DNA of 32,000 nucleotides from Thermodesulfobacteriota bacterium (GTDB lineage Bacteria > Desulfobacterota > WTBG01 > JAGOGO01), in contig CP113000.1 in assembly GCA_026625185.1 (NCBI GenBank), positions 1,005,622 to 1,037,621 on the forward strand. Direction: 5' to 3'. Positions 2,438 through 13,719 of this stretch are shown here, piece after piece. Position 1 is the stretch's first letter; each line of letters begins with the position of its first letter. Made by a program: the position numbers and the translations under genes. The notes below the pieces were generated by a model. That model ran no database searches. It saw nothing but the letters and a program-made list of their open reading frames with translations, and was not told the origin of the DNA.

Positions 2438-3211
2438 TCAATCAGTTGTTCTCATAAACTGACCCTGCCTGATAAAGTTGAGAATTTGTTTTCGCACGTC
2501 CCGATGATTCAGGATAAAGGTATGCTGATGATGGACAACGATGAAGTCTTTCATTTCTTCTAACCGGGCGCTTTCTACAGAAACCCTTCCATCATCCGCC
2601 CCGGGAATGGCAGAAGAGAACCAGGGATTCCCCGGGTTATCACCGGCGATGATTCCAATTTCATAGGGTAACGGCTTTAATGTCCAGACAAGCGCCTTTT
2701 TGTCTGTCCCGATCTGCTGTGCCGCCGGACCGGCAATAATCCCGCATAAGCTCTCCGATTCTTCCTTAAACCGGTCCACCAGCCCACTTCCCTTGTTCGG
2801 GTGACCCACCATAACAATTCTTCCGACATTGGCTATTTTTTTATCCTGGAGGTAATAACGCAGCACTATGCCACCCAGCGAATGGGTTACAAAATGAACC
2901 CGGTCATATTTCCGGAGACACTGCTCGATTTCTTTTCCAACATACTTTGTCGAAATGGTCTGGATATTTTTCGTGACGCTTGGATAGCCGATAATGTAAA
3001 CGTCATACCCCGCTGACTTCAAAAATTTCTCTAATGGTTTAAAAAAGTATTTATTGGACCAGAGACCGTGAAGCACAACAATACACTCCTTTTGGCTTGC
3101 GTAAACCGGCGACCACCAAAGCACCATAAAGGCAAAAATGACTACATAGATTAGGCTATTTTTCAAAACATCTCTTCCTTTTTTGTGAATAATGTAACCT
3201 TCTGGTCTCAT
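2438..3211 (-). CDS. Secreted or membrane-anchored alpha/beta hydrolase (lipase/esterase-like)
   Basis: The N-terminus has a hydrophobic anchor. A VVLHG oxyanion-type motif and the nucleophile elbow HSLGG (GxSxG) are present. Length is about 250 aa. Confidence 0.75.
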   Translation of the reverse strand: MRPEGYIIHKKGRDVLKNSLIYVVIFAFMVLWWSPVYASQKECIVVLHGLWSNKYFFKPLEKFLKSAGYDVYIIGYPSVTKNIQTISTKYVGKEIEQCLRKYDRVHFVTHSLGGIVLRYYLQDKKIANVGRIVMVGHPNKGSGLVDRFKEESESLCGIIAGPAAQQIGTDKKALVWTLKPLPYEIGIIAGDNPGNPWFSSAIPGADDGRVSVESARLEEMKDFIVVHHQHTFILNHRDVRKQILNFIRQGQFMRTTD

Positions 3212-3259
3212 AAGTAAATAATATCCCCATTCCCTCTTCCCGAATAATTTCTTCTTTTG

Positions 3260-4630
3260 TTATGCTTTACTAAGCTGAGGCACCAGATCAAAAATTAATT
3301 TTCTCTCTTTTGCTGGGTTCCAGCCTTTTATATTCCAACAAACCGTACGTCCATAGTAAGCAAAATTGATTGCTGCATGGTAAAGTAATGATGCTAATCC
3401 CCGCGGCCGTTGTGCCTGTCTGGTCAGACGCCTCGCAATCCGCCAGGGGCGATAAAATTCGTACGTTACCCAATCATGCCCCGCTTGCAATGCTTCCGCC
3501 GACATGCCCTGTGGCTGGAAGACCACATTATGAAAATCATAATGAGACCAGTTCCGGTCAAAAATCCGGGAGCTCATGGCTTCAAACCGGGGAGTGCCGG
3601 GCAACGGCGTAAAGATAGAAGCCTGAATTAAATCCACCTCCAGATCATCAAGGAGTTGCAAGGTCCGTTTAAATACCGCAGGGCCGTCGCCGTCAAAACC
3701 AAACACAATCCCCGCTTCCACGCCGATACCATGAGAATGCAGGAGGCGAATCGCTTCCCGATATTTTTCCACCCGGTGAAAACCTTTGTTCACTGCCTCC
3801 AGGTTGCCATCCGAAAAGGTTTCTAAGCCGACAAAAAGGCCGATGCAGCCGGCTTTTGCCATGAGGCGGACAAAGTCGGGATCATCCACTATGCCGAGGG
3901 TCGACTGCGTTACCCATTTTTTCCGCAAAGGCACCAGCGCGTTAAATAGATTCCGGGCGTAGTCTCGATCCGCGGTCAGGTTGTCATCAACCAGAATAAA
4001 AAAACGACCGGGAATTTCCGCTATTTCGTTTGCCACCTCTTCCACCAGACGCCGCCGTTGGGTGTGATGGGAAGCAGCCGAAATAGAACAAAAGTCGCAT
4101 TGATTCTCACAGCCCCTGGTCGCCTGCACTGCCTGAATGGTAGCGTAATGCTTTCCCTGAAGGAGGTGACGAGGCGGTCGCTTAAGCCCCCGCAACTGGC
4201 AGGGGTAATCATTCCGGTAAATACCGCGTAACTGTCCAGCTTGCGCATCAGCGATAACCTTTAGCCAGACTCCCTCGGCATCTCCTGACACAACCGCATC
4301 CGCGTAATTAAGCGCTTCTTCCGCGCAGAGAGTCGGATGCATGCCGCCGAGTACAACCGGAATATTCCTTTTGCGAAATTCAGCCGCGATTTCATAAGCC
4401 CGCGGCGCAAGCGCTGTCATGCAGGTGATGCCTACTAAATCAACTTGTGCGTCCCACGGGACCTCTTCAATCTGTTCATCAATAATTTTAATATCCACAT
4501 CAGGCGGGGTTTCCGCGGCTACGGTTAAAAGGCTTAACATTGAGAACCGGAAGGTCTTGCCGTTAAAAATTCTGTTTTTTCCCACCTTCCGCCACCTTCC
4601 ACTTGCAGGAGCAATTAAAAGAACCTTCAT
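3260..4630 (-). CDS. B12-binding-domain radical SAM enzyme (class B), substrate unknown
   Basis: The CxxxCxxC cluster motif is CENQCDFC. The N-terminus is a Rossmann-like B12-binding region (MKVLLIAP...VGITCMT...VVLGGMHPT). AGGAGG sits 6 nt upstream of the second ATG (4630), so the 4636 start is disfavoured. Confidence 0.85.
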   Translation of the reverse strand: MKVLLIAPASGRWRKVGKNRIFNGKTFRFSMLSLLTVAAETPPDVDIKIIDEQIEEVPWDAQVDLVGITCMTALAPRAYEIAAEFRKRNIPVVLGGMHPTLCAEEALNYADAVVSGDAEGVWLKVIADAQAGQLRGIYRNDYPCQLRGLKRPPRHLLQGKHYATIQAVQATRGCENQCDFCSISAASHHTQRRRLVEEVANEIAEIPGRFFILVDDNLTADRDYARNLFNALVPLRKKWVTQSTLGIVDDPDFVRLMAKAGCIGLFVGLETFSDGNLEAVNKGFHRVEKYREAIRLLHSHGIGVEAGIVFGFDGDGPAVFKRTLQLLDDLEVDLIQASIFTPLPGTPRFEAMSSRIFDRNWSHYDFHNVVFQPQGMSAEALQAGHDWVTYEFYRPWRIARRLTRQAQRPRGLASLLYHAAINFAYYGRTVCWNIKGWNPAKERKLIFDLVPQLSKA

Positions 4631-4679
4631 GATCATCCTCCTTTGGTTATATCGTTTTACGTCAGTTACTCACCAAAAG

Positions 4680-4695: not shown

Positions 4696-4790
4696 GACCG
4701 AATAGTTACGCTTAACAATTTGAATATATTATATATTTAATGGCAGGTTAGTCATTGGCAAATAAGCAGCAAAGAGGATATGATCATTTT

Positions 4791-4822: not shown

Positions 4823-5047
4823 AAAGCGATGATGTTGTTGAAAAAACCTTTTGTTGACTTTGCCTCTTCAAAGGATTAAAAAATAAATAATTTATCAATT
4901 CCCAGAAAAAAATAATCGCAGTACAATAATGGGGGCCGCGGAGGAAGGAGATTCCATGAGTGACGAGAATAAAATAAGGCCGAATTACTAAGAATAAAGG
5001 TGATGGGCCTTTTTTACTTTAATGTAAAACCATGATACGAGCTTTGC

Positions 5048-6085
5048 ATGGATAAAAAAGAACAGAATAACTCCCAGTTAGTTTTATATCAGACCGAAGA
5101 CGGCAAGGCACGCATAGAAGTGCGCTTACAGGATGAGACAGTATGGCTCACTCAAAAGATGATGGCTGATCTATTTCAGGTTGCGGTGCCTACTATCAAT
5201 GAGCATATAAAAAATATTTTGGCCGAAGGGGAACTGGTGTCCAAGGCAACTATTAGGAAATTCCTAATAGTTCAAAAAGAAGGCTCTCGGGAGGTATCGC
5301 GTAACGTTGATTTTTTCAACCTCGAAATGATCGTGGCAGTTGGATTTCGTGTCCGGTCACAAAGAGGAACACAGTTTCGTAAATGGGCGATAGATCGTCT
5401 TAATGAGTATATGGTTAAAGGTTTTATCATGGATGACGAACGCCTGAAAGCGGGCATTAATATAGGATCGGATTATTTTGATGAGATGCTGGAACGCATT
5501 CGGGACATCCGTTCCAGCGAGAAGCGGTTTTACCAGAAGATTCGCGATATTTATAAGCTTGCTGTTGATTATGATCCACAAGCGGAAGAAACGCTGGAAT
5601 TTTTTAGTATTGTAAAAAATAAGCTTCATTTCGCTATTTCAGGCAAAACAGCGGCTGAATTGATCTCAGAGCGTGCTGACGCCGCTAAACCCAATATGGG
5701 GCTGAGTTCATGGAGAGGGGCTAAGGTGCGCAGAACAGATGTAACGGTTGCCAAGAATTACCTTAATGAAGCGGAAATGGAAGGATTAAATCGCATTGTC
5801 ACGATGTATCTGGATTTCGCGGAAGATCAGGCAAAACGTCACCGCCAGATTTTCATGCGTGATTGGCGGGCGAAGCTGGATGCTTTTTTAAAATTTAACG
5901 ATCGTGAAATCTTGAAAGATCCCGGCAAGGTGAGCAAGGAGATTGCGGATGCGCTGGCTCTGGAACAGTATGAAATCTTTAACCGCAACAGATTAGCGGT
6001 AGAAGCTGAGCAAGAAGCTATTGCCGATGATAAAGAATTGAAACAGATTCAGAGCAAGATTGAAAAGGGGAAGAGAAAGAAATAA
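5048..6085 (+). CDS. rhuM: RhuM-family protein (virulence/defence-island-associated, DNA-binding-type N-terminus)
   Basis: 345 aa. The N-terminus (LVLYQTEDGKARIEVRLQDETVWLTQKMMADLFQV...INEHIKNILAEGEL) and the central SEKRFYQKIRDIY and MGLSSW motifs match my recollection of the RhuM family (PF13310). Confidence 0.75.
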   Translation: MDKKEQNNSQLVLYQTEDGKARIEVRLQDETVWLTQKMMADLFQVAVPTINEHIKNILAEGELVSKATIRKFLIVQKEGSREVSRNVDFFNLEMIVAVGFRVRSQRGTQFRKWAIDRLNEYMVKGFIMDDERLKAGINIGSDYFDEMLERIRDIRSSEKRFYQKIRDIYKLAVDYDPQAEETLEFFSIVKNKLHFAISGKTAAELISERADAAKPNMGLSSWRGAKVRRTDVTVAKNYLNEAEMEGLNRIVTMYLDFAEDQAKRHRQIFMRDWRAKLDAFLKFNDREILKDPGKVSKEIADALALEQYEIFNRNRLAVEAEQEAIADDKELKQIQSKIEKGKRKK

Positions 6086-6273
6086 TGATAGGCCTTTTTT
6101 TGTTTTGGGACTCAGCTTAGTTGGCGGCTTCGAACCGGCTTATACAGTCTGTAGAAGACCGAAGCTATCAAAACAACAAAATGGTTTAACATTTTAATAT
6201 TATGTGATATTTATAATTTTTCAAGAAAACACGGAAACGTCTTATACAGAAGGCAACCGTCTTTGTTTGCAGT

Positions 6274-6292
6274 ATTATACAGACTGTATAAT
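6274..6292 (+). promoter_or_regulatory. 19-bp perfect palindrome overlapping a TATAAT box (candidate operator/promoter for cassette 1)
   Basis: ATTATACAGACTGTATAAT has 9-bp arms and a 1-nt centre. TATAAT lies at 6287-6292, and TTGTTT lies 18 nt upstream of it. The palindrome ends 5 nt before the proposed cassette boundary. Confidence 0.4.
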
Positions 6293-6297
6293 CTATG

Positions 6298-7136
6298 TTC
6301 GGTATAAAAAAATGGAAAAAAATACTATACAAACTCTTAAAGGTCATTTGTTGGCAGCACGAGCTCTTAAAGACTCGATGGAGAAGTCGCTTGCGTCAAC
6401 TTCAAAGGATAACGTCTGGAAATATGCTAGTTTCAAATCGTATATGTCAACATACCAGAGCATTGTTGCACAAGTATCGACCATAATAAATATCACTGCG
6501 CCTATTGGTGTCTGGGATTTACAAAAAATTCGTGGTTCTCACGATACAACAACCATACAACAACAGGAATTTTTTGAATCAGTTTATGCAAATCTAAACA
6601 TTCTTATCTCATTCATTGAACATTCTATCGATCTTAAGGGCGACGAAATAAGAAGCCTTTGTGATTTTTTTCAGGCAAATCTTAGAAGAGCCGTCTTTGT
6701 AGAACCAGATAAAGAGAAAGAGATACAAGATGTTGTGGAGCAACTGCTGATCGGAAAAGGCTTTGCAAAAGGGATTGACTATGACCGAGAAACCGGCCGC
6801 GTTAAGGTTTCAATTAAGGAAGTAGTTCCTGATTTTATATTGCCGAGATTGTCAATGGCTATAGAGGTCAAGCTGTCAAAAGACAAATCTAAAAGCAAAT
6901 CTATCGTTGACGAGATCAATGCAGATATTCAAGCATACAGCAAGAAATATTCATCTACACTTTTTATCGTTTATGACCTCGGTTCTATTCAAGATGAATT
7001 TGCTTTCAAACATGGCCTTGAAACCATTGATGGGAATATTAGAATAGTCATCGTTAAACATTGAACAATACCGAACAATCGGTTTAACATGGATTGCAAT
7101 TCCGCTGCGCTGCATTGCAACCAGTGAACCGAAACG
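6298..7136 (+). mobile_element. Integron-type gene cassette 1 (PD-(D/E)XK-like ORF plus attC)
   Basis: The left boundary G|TTCGGT (6297-6303) is the exact reverse complement of ACCGAAC (7070-7076), the R'' of the hairpin site after the ORF. The right boundary is G|TT within GTTAGGC (7136-7142). The ORF starts 14 nt inside the boundary. Confidence 0.55.
6312..7064 (+). CDS. Orphan protein with a helical N-terminal domain and a C-terminal PD-(D/E)XK nuclease-like core
   Basis: I use the ATG at 6312 (MEKNTIQ); the 6204 start in the track reads through the promoter/palindrome region. The C-terminal motif is E(VVEQLL)...VVPDFILPRLSMAIEVKL, that is D-x11-E-x-K, with flanking beta-strand-like segments (STLFIVYDLG, IRIVIVKH). 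I recognise no family. Confidence 0.6.
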   Translation: MEKNTIQTLKGHLLAARALKDSMEKSLASTSKDNVWKYASFKSYMSTYQSIVAQVSTIINITAPIGVWDLQKIRGSHDTTTIQQQEFFESVYANLNILISFIEHSIDLKGDEIRSLCDFFQANLRRAVFVEPDKEKEIQDVVEQLLIGKGFAKGIDYDRETGRVKVSIKEVVPDFILPRLSMAIEVKLSKDKSKSKSIVDEINADIQAYSKKYSSTLFIVYDLGSIQDEFAFKHGLETIDGNIRIVIVKH

Positions 7137-7142
7137 TTAGGC
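7070..7142 (+). other. attC-like recombination site 1
   Basis: R'' is ACCGAAC (7070-7076) and R' is GTTAGGC (7136-7142). Between them is an imperfect hairpin: 7080-7084 pairs with 7127-7131, 7088-7092 with 7121-7126 (one bulge), and 7094-7100 with 7114-7120. Bases are bulged on both arms, and 3- to 4-nt unpaired spacers sit next to the R boxes. The site starts 6 nt after the ORF stop. Confidence 0.55.
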
Positions 7143-8124
7143 CGTGACCGAATCTATTCACACCCATAAGGAGATTTCCCGAAATGGACATTCCACGGAT
7201 TTTCAACATCACCGAAAGTGCTCACCGCATCCATAACCCGTTCACACCCGAAAAGCTCGCCACTCTCGGCGCGGCGCTGCGTCTGGAAACGGGGACCCGA
7301 GTGCTCGACCTCGGCAGCGGTTCGGGGGAGATGCTGTGCACCTGGGCACGCGATTACGGAGTCATCGGCACCGGCATCGACATGAGCCAGTTGTTCACCG
7401 AGCAAGCGAAACTCCGCGCTGAAGAACTCGGAGTCGCCAATCAAGTCAAGTTCATCCATGGCGATGCTACCGGCTACGTCTCGGACGACAGGGCCGGTGT
7501 GGCAGCCTGTATCGGTGCTACATGGATCGCTGGGGGAGTCATCGGCACTATCGGGCTTCTGGCGCAGAGCCTCCGCACCGGAGGGATCATCCTCATCGGC
7601 GAGCCATACTGGCGGCAGTTACCGCCGACGGAAGATGTTGCCAAGGGGTGTCTTGCCAACTCAATCTCCGACTTTCTCATGCTTCCAGAACTTCTCGCGT
7701 CTTTCGGCCACCTTGGCTACGACGTCGTTGAAATGGTTCTGGCTGACCAAGACGGCTGGGACAGATACGAGGCGGCCAAATGGCTCACCATGCGCCGATG
7801 GCTTGAAGCCAATCCCGACGACGAGTTCGCGAAAGATGTTCGAGCCAAACTGACCTCGGAACCCGAGCGCTACGCCGCTTACACGCGTGAATACCTGGGC
7901 TGGGGGGTGTTCGCGCTGATGCCGCGGTGATTCGTTGGCGTATCCGGCGGATCGTCAACGGCTGTGCCACGCAACAGCTGGTGGCTCGCCGAGATGTGAT
8001 TGCGCCTGAATTCATTTCTTATGGTCTAGTTATCCGTGCAATCAACAGAAAGGTCTGTCTCAAGCAGGCCTAACATCAATTCATTCAAGCCGACGCCGCT
8101 TCGCGGCGCGGCTTAATTCAGGCG
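7137..8124 (+). mobile_element. Integron-type gene cassette 2 (SAM-methyltransferase plus aadA-type attC), GC-rich
   Basis: It starts with TTAGGC, and its own attC R'' is GCCTAAC (8068-8074), an exact complement of G+TTAGGC as a circular cassette requires. It ends at the G of GTTCCAG (8124). Its composition is visibly much more GC-rich than cassette 1 and the flanking genome. Confidence 0.7.
7184..7930 (+). CDS. Class I SAM-dependent methyltransferase (small-molecule type; no DNA-methyltransferase motifs)
   Basis: Motif I is VLDLGSGSGEM, followed by an acidic post-I residue (GIDMS) and a Rossmann-fold pattern. AAGGAG lies 9 nt upstream of the ATG. I saw no DPPY/NPPY or PCQ motifs. Confidence 0.85.
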   Translation: MDIPRIFNITESAHRIHNPFTPEKLATLGAALRLETGTRVLDLGSGSGEMLCTWARDYGVIGTGIDMSQLFTEQAKLRAEELGVANQVKFIHGDATGYVSDDRAGVAACIGATWIAGGVIGTIGLLAQSLRTGGIILIGEPYWRQLPPTEDVAKGCLANSISDFLMLPELLASFGHLGYDVVEMVLADQDGWDRYEAAKWLTMRRWLEANPDDEFAKDVRAKLTSEPERYAAYTREYLGWGVFALMPR

Positions 8125-8130
8125 TTCCAG
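8068..8130 (+). other. attC site 2 (aadA-like 59-base element)
   Basis: Sequence: GCCTAAC-ATCAATTCATTC-AAGCCGACGCCGC-TTC-GCGGCGCGGCTT-AATTCAGGC-GTTCCAG. It forms a 12-bp stem (8087-8099 with 8103-8114) with one extrahelical A (8093). The 33-nt core TTCAAGCCGACGCCGCTTCGCGGCGCGGCTTAA matches, from memory, the core of the aadA1 attC of class 1 integrons. Confidence 0.8.
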
Positions 8131-8156
8131 CCAGGCTATCCAAATTCTTTAACACG

Positions 8157-11100
8157 TTAGGCTAAGCTTTGGGCCAGGGCTTTGGCCTGGGAAAAGTCGG
8201 CTTTGCCGCTCCCTAACTTGGGAATGCTCTCAACCTTTATGATGCTATCCGGCAGCATCAAGGGGTCCACCTTGTTTTCGATCAATTTTTGTCGTATGAC
8301 CGCCGGATCGATCTCTCCGGCAAACAGGAGAACGATTTTTTCTCCTTTTTTCGCGTCCGGCAAAGCCACTACCGCAAGCTCCATCTCTTTATTGTCCAGC
8401 GCGCCGGCAACCGCTTCTTCCACCGCGCCCAGACTTATCATCTCACCCCCGATCTTGGCAAACCGGGAATAGCGGTCAAGAATGGTAAGAAAGCCGTCGT
8501 CGTCAAGCTGTCCTTTATCTCCGGTCTTGTACCAGCGGATGCCGTCTTTTTCAACAATAACTTCCTGAGTCTTTTTTTCGTTTTTCAGGTAGCCGGCCAT
8601 TATTTGCGGACCGCCGACAAGGATAAGACCCGCCTCACCCGCTGGCAGTTCCTCCAGAGTTGCCGGGTCAACGATTTTAAAGCTTGTGCCGGGAAGGGGT
8701 AATCCCACGGTGCCAATCTTGGTCCCCTGCTGCACGGACCAATCACCGGTCTTGAGCACATCCGGAAGATTGACGCTGGCGACCGGAGTTGTTTCCGTGA
8801 CACCGTAACCTTCGTAAATATCAAGACCGAATTTTGCCTTAAAATCTTCCCGTACCTCGCCGCTTAATTTTTCCGCACCCGCGACAACCAGCCGCAGGGA
8901 TTCAAACATCAGCGGATGAAGCTTCTTGTTTTTGTTATACAGCCGCAAAAAAGTAGAGGTGGAACATAAAATTGTCGCCCGGTGTTCCGCAACCAGCTTG
9001 CCGATTGCGTACGCATTTGTAGGATCTGGGTGGCAAACCACTGGAATACCTTCCACCAGGGGAAGAAAAGAGGTTACCGTCAGACCGAATGAGTGAAAAA
9101 GCGGCAGCACACTTAACAGAACATCGCTTTCTTGGAAATTTAAAACACTGGCAACCTGCTTGATGTTGCCCACAATGTTGCGGTGAGTCAGCTGAACCCC
9201 TTTGGGCAGGCCTTCACTCCCACTGCTAAACACGATAGCCGCGACATCATCGAGCGATGTTTTTTTGGAATACAACAACTTTAAAAGAAACGCCGGCAAC
9301 AGTTTAACCAGGAACGCGGTTCGAATAAGCGAGATCTTGCCAAACTGCTCTCTGAGCTCTTCGAGGAAAACCACTTTTTTATCAGCCAGAAATTCTGAAG
9401 CCGGAAACCCTTTGTTGTTCAAAGTGGTCACAAAACGTTTCGAGGTGAGAATGGTCTTTATTTCCGCCTGTTCAACCGCCTGCATAAGACTTGCCTGCGA
9501 GGCGGTGTAGTTCAGGTTCACCACGGTCTTGCCCAGCATTAATACCGACAGGTTGGCAATTATACCGCCCGAGCTGGTAGGAAGGAGCAAGCCCACATTG
9601 TGTTCCTGTCTTAATTTCTTTTTCAACGCCTGAGCAAAAACTATCGCCGCCGTTAAAAGCCGGTGGGAAGAAAAAGACGTGCCGTCAAAATCAATCAACC
9701 ATTTTTCGTTTTTAATCTTTTTTGCGGTCTTGAGCCATTGAATGGGGATAGTGCTCAAGGCATCAGAATACTGCAGCCAGGAATGGATTGATAACCCCAG
9801 AACCGCTTTTTTCACTTCCGCTGCCGTTGCGTCTCTGGAAAGGGGTTTGCCGAAACACACCGACACATCGCGGGTTCTCTTAAGCCGGGACATCTCCCGG
9901 TGCTTGGGGGTGGCAAAAGAATAAAGGCTTCCCCACAATCCGCGAAGGTAAAAGGGAATAATAACGGCCGCGGCATTTTTTATTGCCAGTTCAAATCCGC
10001 GATGAAACACCCCAACCTGCCCATTGCGGCTCAGCGCCCCTTCGGGGAAAAGGACTACCACCTCACCCTGATTGAGAAGCTTTTCAATAACATCGATAGC
10101 CTCCCTGCTCGCACTGGAGGAAATCGGAACAACCCCAAAGAAATCCAAAAATTTCTTTAAGAACCACTTTTCATAATATCCTCGATACATCACAAACCGA
10201 ACCCGACGGGGGCAGGCCATTTGAACAATGGCCCAGTCCAGATAGCTGGTGTGATTGCCGAGCATGAGTACTCCACCAGAAGAAGGGATGTTATTCATAC
10301 CTATGACCTGAAGCTTATAGTGTTGCGAAACTAATGTAGCAATCACATAGCGAATAAACGACTGCGGCAATTTAATGAAGGTGTAAACCGCTCCGCAAAA
10401 AGCGATGATAAATAATCCTTTAAAGATATAAACGCTGCCTATTCCCTTAAGGGCAGTGCCGATCGCAAGAACCAGGAAGAAGAGCATAACCGCGTTCTGG
10501 AGAAAATTATTCCCCGCCAGCACCTTGCCCAGCTCTTCGCCCTTCGCGTTAAACTGGATGAGGGAATTCAAGGGCACAATAAACATTCCCCCCGCAATTC
10601 CGTAAAGGAAAAACAGGAGCGCGAACCAGGCAATGCTGGTGGTTGAGGGAAGGAGAAAAAGCAAAACCGTGATTCCGATCGCGCTCGCCGGGATCATCCC
10701 GGTCTCAATGTAGTTTTTGGACACCTTGCCCGCGAGCAGCGAGCCGACAATGACTCCGATACCGGCTATGGCCATCAAGCCCTGCGCGATGACTGTATTG
10801 GTGACATCTGCCGTCTCCTTCAAATACGCTCCAAAGGCCGCGAACACCACCTGGTTAATCCCCCAAAAAATCGCCAGCCCGATAATGCTGAGCCAGATCA
10901 CCTCGTTTCCCTTGATCGCCCGAAGGTTTTCTTTCAAATAGTTTCCGGTCACATATTGTTTCCTATCAAAGGCGAGCTCCCTTTTTGTTTCGGTCTTTTG
11001 CGGAAGCGTGAACGCCCACAGGGCTTCGATGGCGGTTCCCACAATAATCAGATATCCCAGCGGAGCAATGGAAGTGAGAATGTCGCTTAAGGTGCGAAAA

Positions 11101-13438: not shown

Positions 13439-13485
13439 TTATAAATATTTTTTGGAATATATTTTAATCTCTTAAGGAGGAAAAA

Positions 13486-13719
13486 ATGGCTAATGAAGAA
13501 GTAAAGCAGCGGATTATTGACTTTTTTAAACAGTCCAAAGGCAAGAGCAAGTTTTATTTAAGCGACCTTACCAAAGCCGCGCCTGAACTTTCAAAAAAGG
13601 ATTTAAAAAAGGTTACCACCGAGATGATTGCTGAAGGGACGCTGATGTACTATTCTACGGGAAGCACAACCATGCTCCAGCTCTCAGAAGCAGATGTGGA
13701 TGCAAAATTAAAAGAATAA
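13486..13719 (+). CDS. dsrD: DsrD, the small winged-helix protein of dissimilatory sulfite reduction
   Basis: 77 aa. It aligns by eye with Desulfovibrio DsrD: KQ.I.DFF...KGKSKFYL.D..K..P.....D.KK....M..EG.L.YYSTGSTTM versus ...KSKFYFNDF...YWSSGSTTM. Confidence 0.85.
   Translation: MANEEVKQRIIDFFKQSKGKSKFYLSDLTKAAPELSKKDLKKVTTEMIAEGTLMYYSTGSTTMLQLSEADVDAKLKE

Follow-up and report, generated by a model that had tools for sequence, protein, structure and literature searches.

Positions 6298-8124 of the 32,000-nt stretch of DNA analysed here (the window, to which coordinates refer unless a comparison contig is named) hold a real two-cassette integron-type array that lacks an adjacent integrase gene and was probably inserted in trans at a promoter-like module. 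In the usual terminology this is a small cluster of attC sites without an integron integrase (CALIN). The host is an uncultured sulfate reducer and strict anaerobe, represented by a deltaproteobacterial metagenome-assembled genome (MAG) carrying dsrAB and dsrD. The array locus was found in MAG GCA_029216075.1 (JARDUJ010000189.1, record form JARDUI010000189.1) and, identically, in GCA_029216095.1. Loci used for comparison are contigs labelled L0nn.

Small CALINs are a known and common kind of element, of which the present array is a further example. By definition, a CALIN has two or more attC sites on one strand, separated by less than 4 kb, and intI is not nearby (PMC4889954), and arrays of two cassettes are the commonest size, making up 1,362 of 2,961 (bioRxiv 10.1101/2022.09.11.507474). 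The window contains two such sites, attC1 and attC2, both on the plus strand and with no intI nearby (Table 1). The locus is not a complete integron: the upstream neighbour of the array is a RhuM gene, and neither intI nor a remnant of it was found in the window, where tblastn over the whole 32 kb with two IntI proteins returned nothing below E 0.6. A first-pass annotation, made from the sequence alone, had already reported no intI in the window and proposed either a CALIN-type array or a secondary-site insertion. Both points are supported by our analysis, in that both units proved to be discrete cassettes and IntI was undetectable. The contrast in composition that it described, with an AT-rich cassette 1 and a cassette 2 that is GC-rich relative to its surroundings, agrees with measured GC fractions of ~0.36-0.39 and ~0.59-0.61, respectively, against 0.43-0.53 in the flanks. 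With its junctions resolved to the nucleotide and both cassettes traceable to complete integrons, the locus provides a clean natural case of integron cassettes outside an integron in a strict anaerobe.

The two cassettes and their recombination sites

The limits of cassette 2 are set by comparison with L017 (ENA ERZ27254250 k141_215014), a complete integron in which an IntI (417 bits with TIGR02249, for which the cut-off for an integron integrase is 265 bits) is followed by five plus-strand cassettes. The second of these is 95% identical in nucleotide sequence to cassette 2 of the window. The homology covers 7135-7931 and 8061-8126, and so ends at both predicted crossovers. In L018, an array in a Syntrophales MAG, and in L016 the homology to cassette 2 stops at the same point, and among all other copies of the cassette it ends at 8126, the last base of the GTT at 8124-8126. 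Cassette 2 is therefore present as a discrete unit in L017, beside an IntI, and in L018 and L016.

Cassette 1 can be traced in the same way. L031 (Logan ERR15087788_38463) is a complete integron with an IntI (394 bits with TIGR02249) and three cassettes, the third of which encodes a homologue of the first open reading frame (ORF1) of the array (76% amino acid identity). Its homology with the window begins exactly at 6297 and continues into attC1, the 5' half of which is homologous to the attC of this third cassette. The array in L030 carries an ORF1 homologue that has the same start at 6297 and follows the attC of an unrelated toxin-antitoxin cassette, and in L021-L023 the boxes GTTCGGT and GCCGAAC are retained around the cassette 1 homologues. 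Discrete homologues of cassette 1 thus occur with different neighbours in L031 (with IntI), L030 and L021. Taken together, these comparisons, rather than motif matching, fix the predicted crossovers at 6297/6298, 7136/7137 and 8124/8125.

The motifs themselves agree with these limits. In both cassettes the 7-mer at the left edge matches, in reverse complement, the R'' box behind the gene (the box rule), as first noted from the sequence: GTTCGGT (6297-6303) pairs with ACCGAAC (7070-7076), and GTTAGGC (7136-7142) with GCCTAAC (8068-8074). The same rule holds in L017, L030, L031, L032 and L041. Both sites have the hairpins and boxes expected from the earlier description of RYYYAAC…GTTRRRY pairs, with the qualification that ACCGAAC deviates from RYYYAAC at one position. 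Counted from the G|TT boundaries, the two reading frames start 14 and 47 nt into their cassettes, again as described at first pass. Counts of the 7-mers in the window were not above chance, and neither were counts of the box-plus-stem pattern; the hairpin at site 1 was modestly better than shuffles (z = -2.5). The statistical weight therefore rests on the comparison with other loci and on covariance models of attC.

These models were home-made. They were trained on sites from class 1 arrays on five plasmids, from plasmid integrons of Thiodictyon and Kovacikia, and from L017, L030, L031 and L032, and the window and all attCs of the ORF1 family were kept out of the training. Model R3, built from 39 naturally aligned attCs from other loci and applied with the filters disabled to both strands of the window, gave its two best matches at attC2 (48.0 bits, E 6.6e-9) and attC1 (17.5 bits, E 0.043), each at full length and with the limits listed in Table 1. 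The search with an attC model that had been suggested at first pass thus recovered both sites on the plus strand, site 1 marginally. R3 found no match in 44 kb of the related chromosomes L012 and L013. Model R2 scored attC2 at 26.3 bits and matched site 1 in another register (15.1 bits, E 0.18). Model R1, built from 13 trimmed attCs, was set aside as too narrow: it missed dfrA1, blaPSE, estX, several environmental attCs and site 1. Searches against Rfam in gathering and E-value modes gave no match to an attC family and two chance snoRNA matches only. A crude arm-alignment heuristic was also discarded; it recovered known attCs in intergenic regions and was useless genome-wide, where shuffled sequences scored like real sites and site 2 fell outside the top 15. 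While assembling the training set we came across a 96-nt site in the integron array of L028 (Thiodictyon pTs485, 5400-5500), GTCCAAC…GTTAGGC, which forms a perfect 19-bp hairpin with no bulges; it does not resemble the six neighbouring 97-nt attCs and was omitted from training.

attC2 belongs to a well-known family. Folding of its bottom strand gives the predicted 12-bp GC stem, with a single extrahelical base (z = -3.8). Its 33-nt core, TTCAAGCCGACGCCGCTTCGCGGCGCGGCTTAA, is identical to that of the aadA1 attC of class 1 integrons (L024, 1512-1571), as had been suggested at first pass. attC2 also shares a run of 46 contiguous nucleotides with the aac(6')-IIa attC of pYKBF005 (L002), a class 1 integron with IntI1. 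When 7100-8200 was compared with plasmids by BLAST, 8057-8133 matched the attCs of aac(6')-IIa, aadB, aadA and others in more than 3,600 records. attC2 shares the stem and its extrahelical base with the class 1 attCs of aac(6')-IIa, aadA1, aadA6, aadB and qacF. It differs from them in a 3-nt insertion between R'' and L'' (ATCAATTC rather than AACTC or AATTC), in its hybrid R' box and in following a methyltransferase gene rather than a resistance gene.

The methyltransferase has more than 7,800 homologues, ~90% identical in protein sequence and from many phyla; copies at about this level of identity occur in Syntrophales, Geomonas, Geothrix, Armatimonadota, Ignavibacteriales and Desulfobacteraceae, and copies in Azospirillum are 81-83% identical in nucleotide sequence. 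Judged from this distribution, it is a pan-phylum mobile gene. The expectation that a clinical-type attC would be unusual in an anaerobe was not borne out, as the methyltransferase cassette, carrying such an attC, turns up commonly both in environmental metagenomes and among the MAGs of anaerobes. A YjhP-type methyltransferase cassette that occurs across phyla, anaerobes included, is joined in nature to the attC family of clinical cassettes (aadA, aac(6')-IIa and aadB), a linkage that bears on the origin of the recombination sites of clinical cassettes. A copy of the gene in the Methylocystis plasmid pMpar-2 (82% nucleotide identity) was considered as a further cassette and rejected, there being no attC after the gene. 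Two variations within the family may be recorded. The 137-nt spacer between the methyltransferase stop codon and attC2 (7931-8067) has no similarity to the 39-46-nt spacer in L017 and L018, in cassettes that are otherwise 93-95% identical, and in L016 (JGI 3300015263, 6-983) an internal tandem duplication of 231 nt in the gene yields a 325-aa product.

ORF1 has ~950 homologues and weak PADLOC matches to Aga_Helical-REase; a search of PDB gave no relative for it.

Table 1. Features of the array and its surroundings, with positions in the window
Feature	Position	Strand	Description
RhuM-family gene	5048..6085	+	Pfam PF13310, E 4e-114; PADLOC PDC-S05; context, not shown to be a cassette
Conserved non-coding module (candidate "docking module"), 172 nt	6126..6297	+	Ends at crossover G6297; absent from the first-pass annotation
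TATAAT, perfect -10-like hexamer	6287..6292	+	Inside the right palindrome; 4 nt before GTT, array begins 5 nt downstream
Sequence preceding the left junction			…TATAATCTATG
Module pattern			TTATACAGNCTGTATAAT-N4-5-GTT
Left junction, GTTCGGT	6297..6303	+	Predicted crossover G6297/T6298; homology to L030 and L031 begins exactly at 6297
Cassette 1, 839 nt	6298..7136	+	Ends from homologous cassettes in L030, L031 and L021 and from the start of cassette 2
ORF1, 250 aa	6312..7064	+	C-terminal PD-(D/E)xK nuclease domain, PF18742 (DpnII-MboI-like), Pfam E 6.7e-12
attC1, 73 nt	7070..7142	+	R'' ACCGAAC, N5, L'' GTT-T-AAC…, L' …GTGAAC, N6, R' GTTAGGC; bulges
Cassette 2, 988 nt	7137..8124	+	95% nucleotide identity to the second cassette of integron L017
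YjhP-family class I S-adenosylmethionine-dependent methyltransferase, 248 aa	7184..7930	+	PDB 5BP7, 5EPE and 1NKV (YjhP), E 2e-151 to 2e-122; Pfam methyltransferase families
attC2, 63 nt	8068..8130	+	aadA / aac(6')-IIa type; R'' GCCTAAC; hybrid R' GTTCCAG
Presumed resident DNA, 32 nt	8125..8156		Between right crossover G8124/T8125 and the aas stop codon; cassette 2 homology ends at 8126

A palindromic module upstream of the array

The array directly follows a conserved non-coding module. Its limits are marked by two copies, in inverted orientation, of TTATACAG-N-CTGTA(T/g)AA (TTATACAG-N-CTGTATAA) at 6140-6156 and 6275-6291, with a half-copy at 6242-6249, and its TATAAT element would serve as a promoter for the array, with the palindrome acting as an operator. 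The statement made at first pass that the cassettes have no promoters of their own holds for the cassettes themselves; the array as a whole is not left without a promoter-like element, given the TATAAT palindrome directly upstream. A comparable arrangement was seen in a family of phage contigs in IMG/VR (L035, L038, L040, L045, L048, L049 and L050), which read TTGACA-N4-TTATACAG(A/T)CTGTATAAT. Here the palindrome of the module is placed between TTGACA (-35) and TATAAT (-10) of a strong sigma-70-like promoter, and this placement suggests a promoter with an operator. A LexA box of the gamma type was considered for the palindrome and rejected by eye, as CTGT-N8-ACAG is missing.

The module is found again in front of other cassettes. 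In L032, a conjugative-element-like contig, it recurs at 2130-2292 with 73% identity, and after G|TT it is followed by a different cassette, with the boxes GTTGGGA / TCCCAAC and a textbook attC. In L041 the last ~50 nt of the module, found with the palindrome alone as the query, are 87% identical (3099-3143) and the left arm is missing; the sequence reads …TATTATACAGACTGTATAATCATT|GTTAGCT and continues into a cassette with R'' AGCTAAC (attC 27.8 bits) and then a second cassette. The attCs of the cassettes that follow the module in L032 and L041 scored 22-28 bits with R2. A degenerate copy of the module also precedes an ORF1-type cassette in L019 and L020. A BLAST search of the module against plasmids returned nothing, and three scans of viral contigs gave chance-level matches except for L041.

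This reuse, a lead that draws on two clear further loci and the degenerate copy in L019 and L020, hints that the module may be a preferred, attI-like site (attI being the primary insertion site of an integron). Should that be so, some of the many small CALINs may represent expression slots that have been filled, and neither debris nor random insertion events. A stronger version can be imagined, in which modules of ~50-170 nt ending …GTATTATACAGACTGTATAATC(T/A)(A/T)T|GTT would form a dedicated docking platform without an integrase, that is, an orphan attI-like site with an operator-controlled promoter, that would have spread among different bacteria, in their chromosomes as well as their mobile elements, with integron integrases acting on it in trans. 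We regard this version as conceivable but doubtful. If true, genomes without an integron would gain a regulated expression slot for cassettes.

Proposed insertion history and competing explanations

It has been reported that IntI inserts cassettes at genomic GWT sites ("attG"), where they are expressed if a promoter is near (bioRxiv 10.1101/2022.09.11.507474). Based on this, we propose that an integron integrase acted in trans, encoded either at another place in the genome or on a transient element, and that the cassettes entered by recombination between attC and a non-attC site. The target would have been the G|TT that lies 5 nt downstream of the module's TATAAT, with the crossover at 6297/6298. 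Either a single circle of two cassettes was inserted, or the methyltransferase cassette came first and cassette 1 second at the same site. By either route attC1 would end in G+TTAGGC and attC2 in G+TTCCAG, which is what is seen. The array would then be transcribed from the promoter-like element of the module, with the palindrome as its operator. Both outer junctions are G|TT (6297 and 8124), and the left flank has no match to the attC models.

The locus resembles the small CALINs and single attC sites lacking integron integrases (SALINs) that arise by insertion of attC into attG (PMC4889954; Loot et al., bioRxiv 10.1101/2022.09.11.507474): two attCs on the same strand with ~1 kb between them, the absence of intI from the vicinity, promoterless cassettes, a G|TT crossover, a resident promoter-like element immediately upstream and a size of two cassettes. 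It differs in its point of entry, which is not an anonymous GWT but lies at a fixed distance from a palindrome/TATAAT module that is reused with other cassettes at unrelated loci; such reuse is unlike what is seen for a random GWT. A second parallel is the aadB cassette found at a secondary site downstream of a promoter in RSF1010 and pRAY (as cited in 10.1101/2022.09.11.507474). There, as here, a complete cassette lies outside an integron just after a promoter or promoter-like element, which in the window is a predicted one. Unlike the aadB examples, the window has two cassettes, in a chromosome, with no resistance gene and in an anaerobic host.

Several observations weigh against an insertion in trans at a promoter-like module. 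An empty site (…TATAATCTATGTTCCAGCC…; TATAATCTATGTTCCAGCCAGG) was searched for and not found. The closest relatives are of limited help: in L012 and L013, whose aas genes are 79-82% identical to that of the window, aas directly adjoins the ceramidase gene (13450-13620), so that ~5.7 kb are absent and not just the cassettes, and the missing segment includes the radical S-adenosylmethionine (SAM) and thioesterase genes. Because the gap is so much larger than the array, the synteny comparison proposed at first pass, run on these two loci, does not delimit the insertion. The negative result for intI is confined to the 32-kb window. The promoter is putative: its -35 is poor, and a consensus promoter scan did not list the element. 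The probe that found L032 included …CTATGTT, so that the identity up to GTT is partly built in at that locus; L041 is free of such bias. Finally, attC1 is marginal in our models (E 0.04-0.2), with R1 and R2 missing the correct register, and the models stand in only imperfectly for IntegronFinder, as they also fail on the attCs of other ORF1-family cassettes. Since they are rough and overlook some true attCs, the case for site 1 rests mainly on comparative evidence.

The closest competitor to insertion in trans is the remnant of a classical integron, which we judge improbable. Under this explanation the module (6126-6297) would represent attI together with the cassette promoter Pc, and intI would have been deleted or displaced, for example when RhuM was inserted. 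The module does look attI-like: its conservation extends to the crossover G, and the first cassette behind it differs among the window, L032 and L041. In addition, its promoter-like element points into the array, and RhuM lies between 15-nt direct repeats, as expected if it was inserted there. The explanation falters on the integrase. Next to the module, neither IntI nor a fragment of one was found at the three loci with enough flank, namely the window, L032 and L041 (L019 and L020 are too short upstream), and the one recombinase present, in L041, is Xer-like, scoring 102 bits with TIGR02249 against the cut-off of 265. RhuM was likewise not detected by tblastn upstream of the module in L032 or L041. 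Three independent losses of intI would be required. Furthermore, the complete environmental integrons L017 and L031, which share with the window the methyltransferase cassette and the cassette 1 homologue, respectively, with the same ends, differ from it in carrying intI and an attI region beside the array, and these attI regions do not resemble the module.

We also considered an array of three cassettes, the first of which would be a RhuM cassette with a 175-nt attC at 6129-6303 (R'' TTCGAAC, arms TTATACAGTCTGTA / TACAGACTGTATAA, R' GTTCGGT). This segment does fold into a long hairpin with CGAAC/GTTCG paired outside a 14-bp stem (z = -3.3), but each arm is palindromic in itself, which makes the pairing trivial, and the stem has no extrahelical bases. 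It was also the top score of the arm-alignment heuristic, which gives shuffled sequence scores of up to 27.5. None of the three attC models (R1-R3) matched the module, even at E 10; L032 does not conserve the R''-like box, L041 lacks the left arm entirely, and no GTTCGAA left boundary lies upstream of RhuM. RhuM was accordingly rejected as a cassette, and an array of three is very improbable.

An assembly chimera or contamination, with a GC-rich foreign cassette joined at a repeated attC-like sequence, would fit the ~60% GC of cassette 2 against ~37% in cassette 1, the occurrence of cassette 2 in many organisms and the short-read assemblies that end inside the methyltransferase gene (7231, 7350 and 7852), yet it is extremely improbable: the two MAG contigs (93 kb and 150 kb) agree throughout the locus at 100% identity (8.9 kb in the 150-kb contig of GCA_029216095.1), contigs other than L004, the source of the window, cross every junction, and the breaks fall inside the cassette and not at its edges. 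Among the separate contigs, L003 (JGI 3300040744) begins in the chromosome, crosses 6297 and 7136 and reaches 7350, L057 (Logan) spans 6162-7231, and L005 (also JGI 3300040744) runs from 7852 through 8124-8157 into aas. The concern raised at first pass that a chimera had to be excluded is largely allayed by these contigs together with the two identical MAG loci. The ends of the independent short-read assemblies (6153, 6162-6191, 7231, 7350 and 7852) lie within the module and the methyltransferase gene, which suggests that both sequences occur in several genomic contexts in those communities.

Neighbouring genes and minor observations

Upstream of the array, the RhuM gene, a member of the candidate defence family PDC-S05, sits between the direct repeats TGATGGGCCTTTTTT (5001-5015) and TGATAGGCCTTTTTT (6086-6100). 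Such repeats are as expected if RhuM is an insertion in its own right. Further upstream is a divergent B12-radical-SAM gene. This gene and the thioesterase gene (2438-4636) are, as the comparison with L012 and L013 indicates, also variable among the closest relatives. In the intergenic region between the radical-SAM and RhuM genes (4710-4753) there is a 44-nt palindromic pair, GCTTAAC…GTTAGTC, which is the third-best match to the attC models in the window (11.5-11.7 bits, E ~1). Its length falls short of an attC, and it may be either a relic site or a chance match.

The downstream neighbour is a convergent aas gene, encoding a fusion of major facilitator superfamily, acyltransferase and acyl-CoA ligase domains, and its C-terminus is native when judged against relatives. 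A third GTTAGGC, overlooked at first pass, overlaps the aas stop codon at 8156-8162, and the 32 kb contain four copies of this 7-mer, all but one of which fall within 7136-8162.

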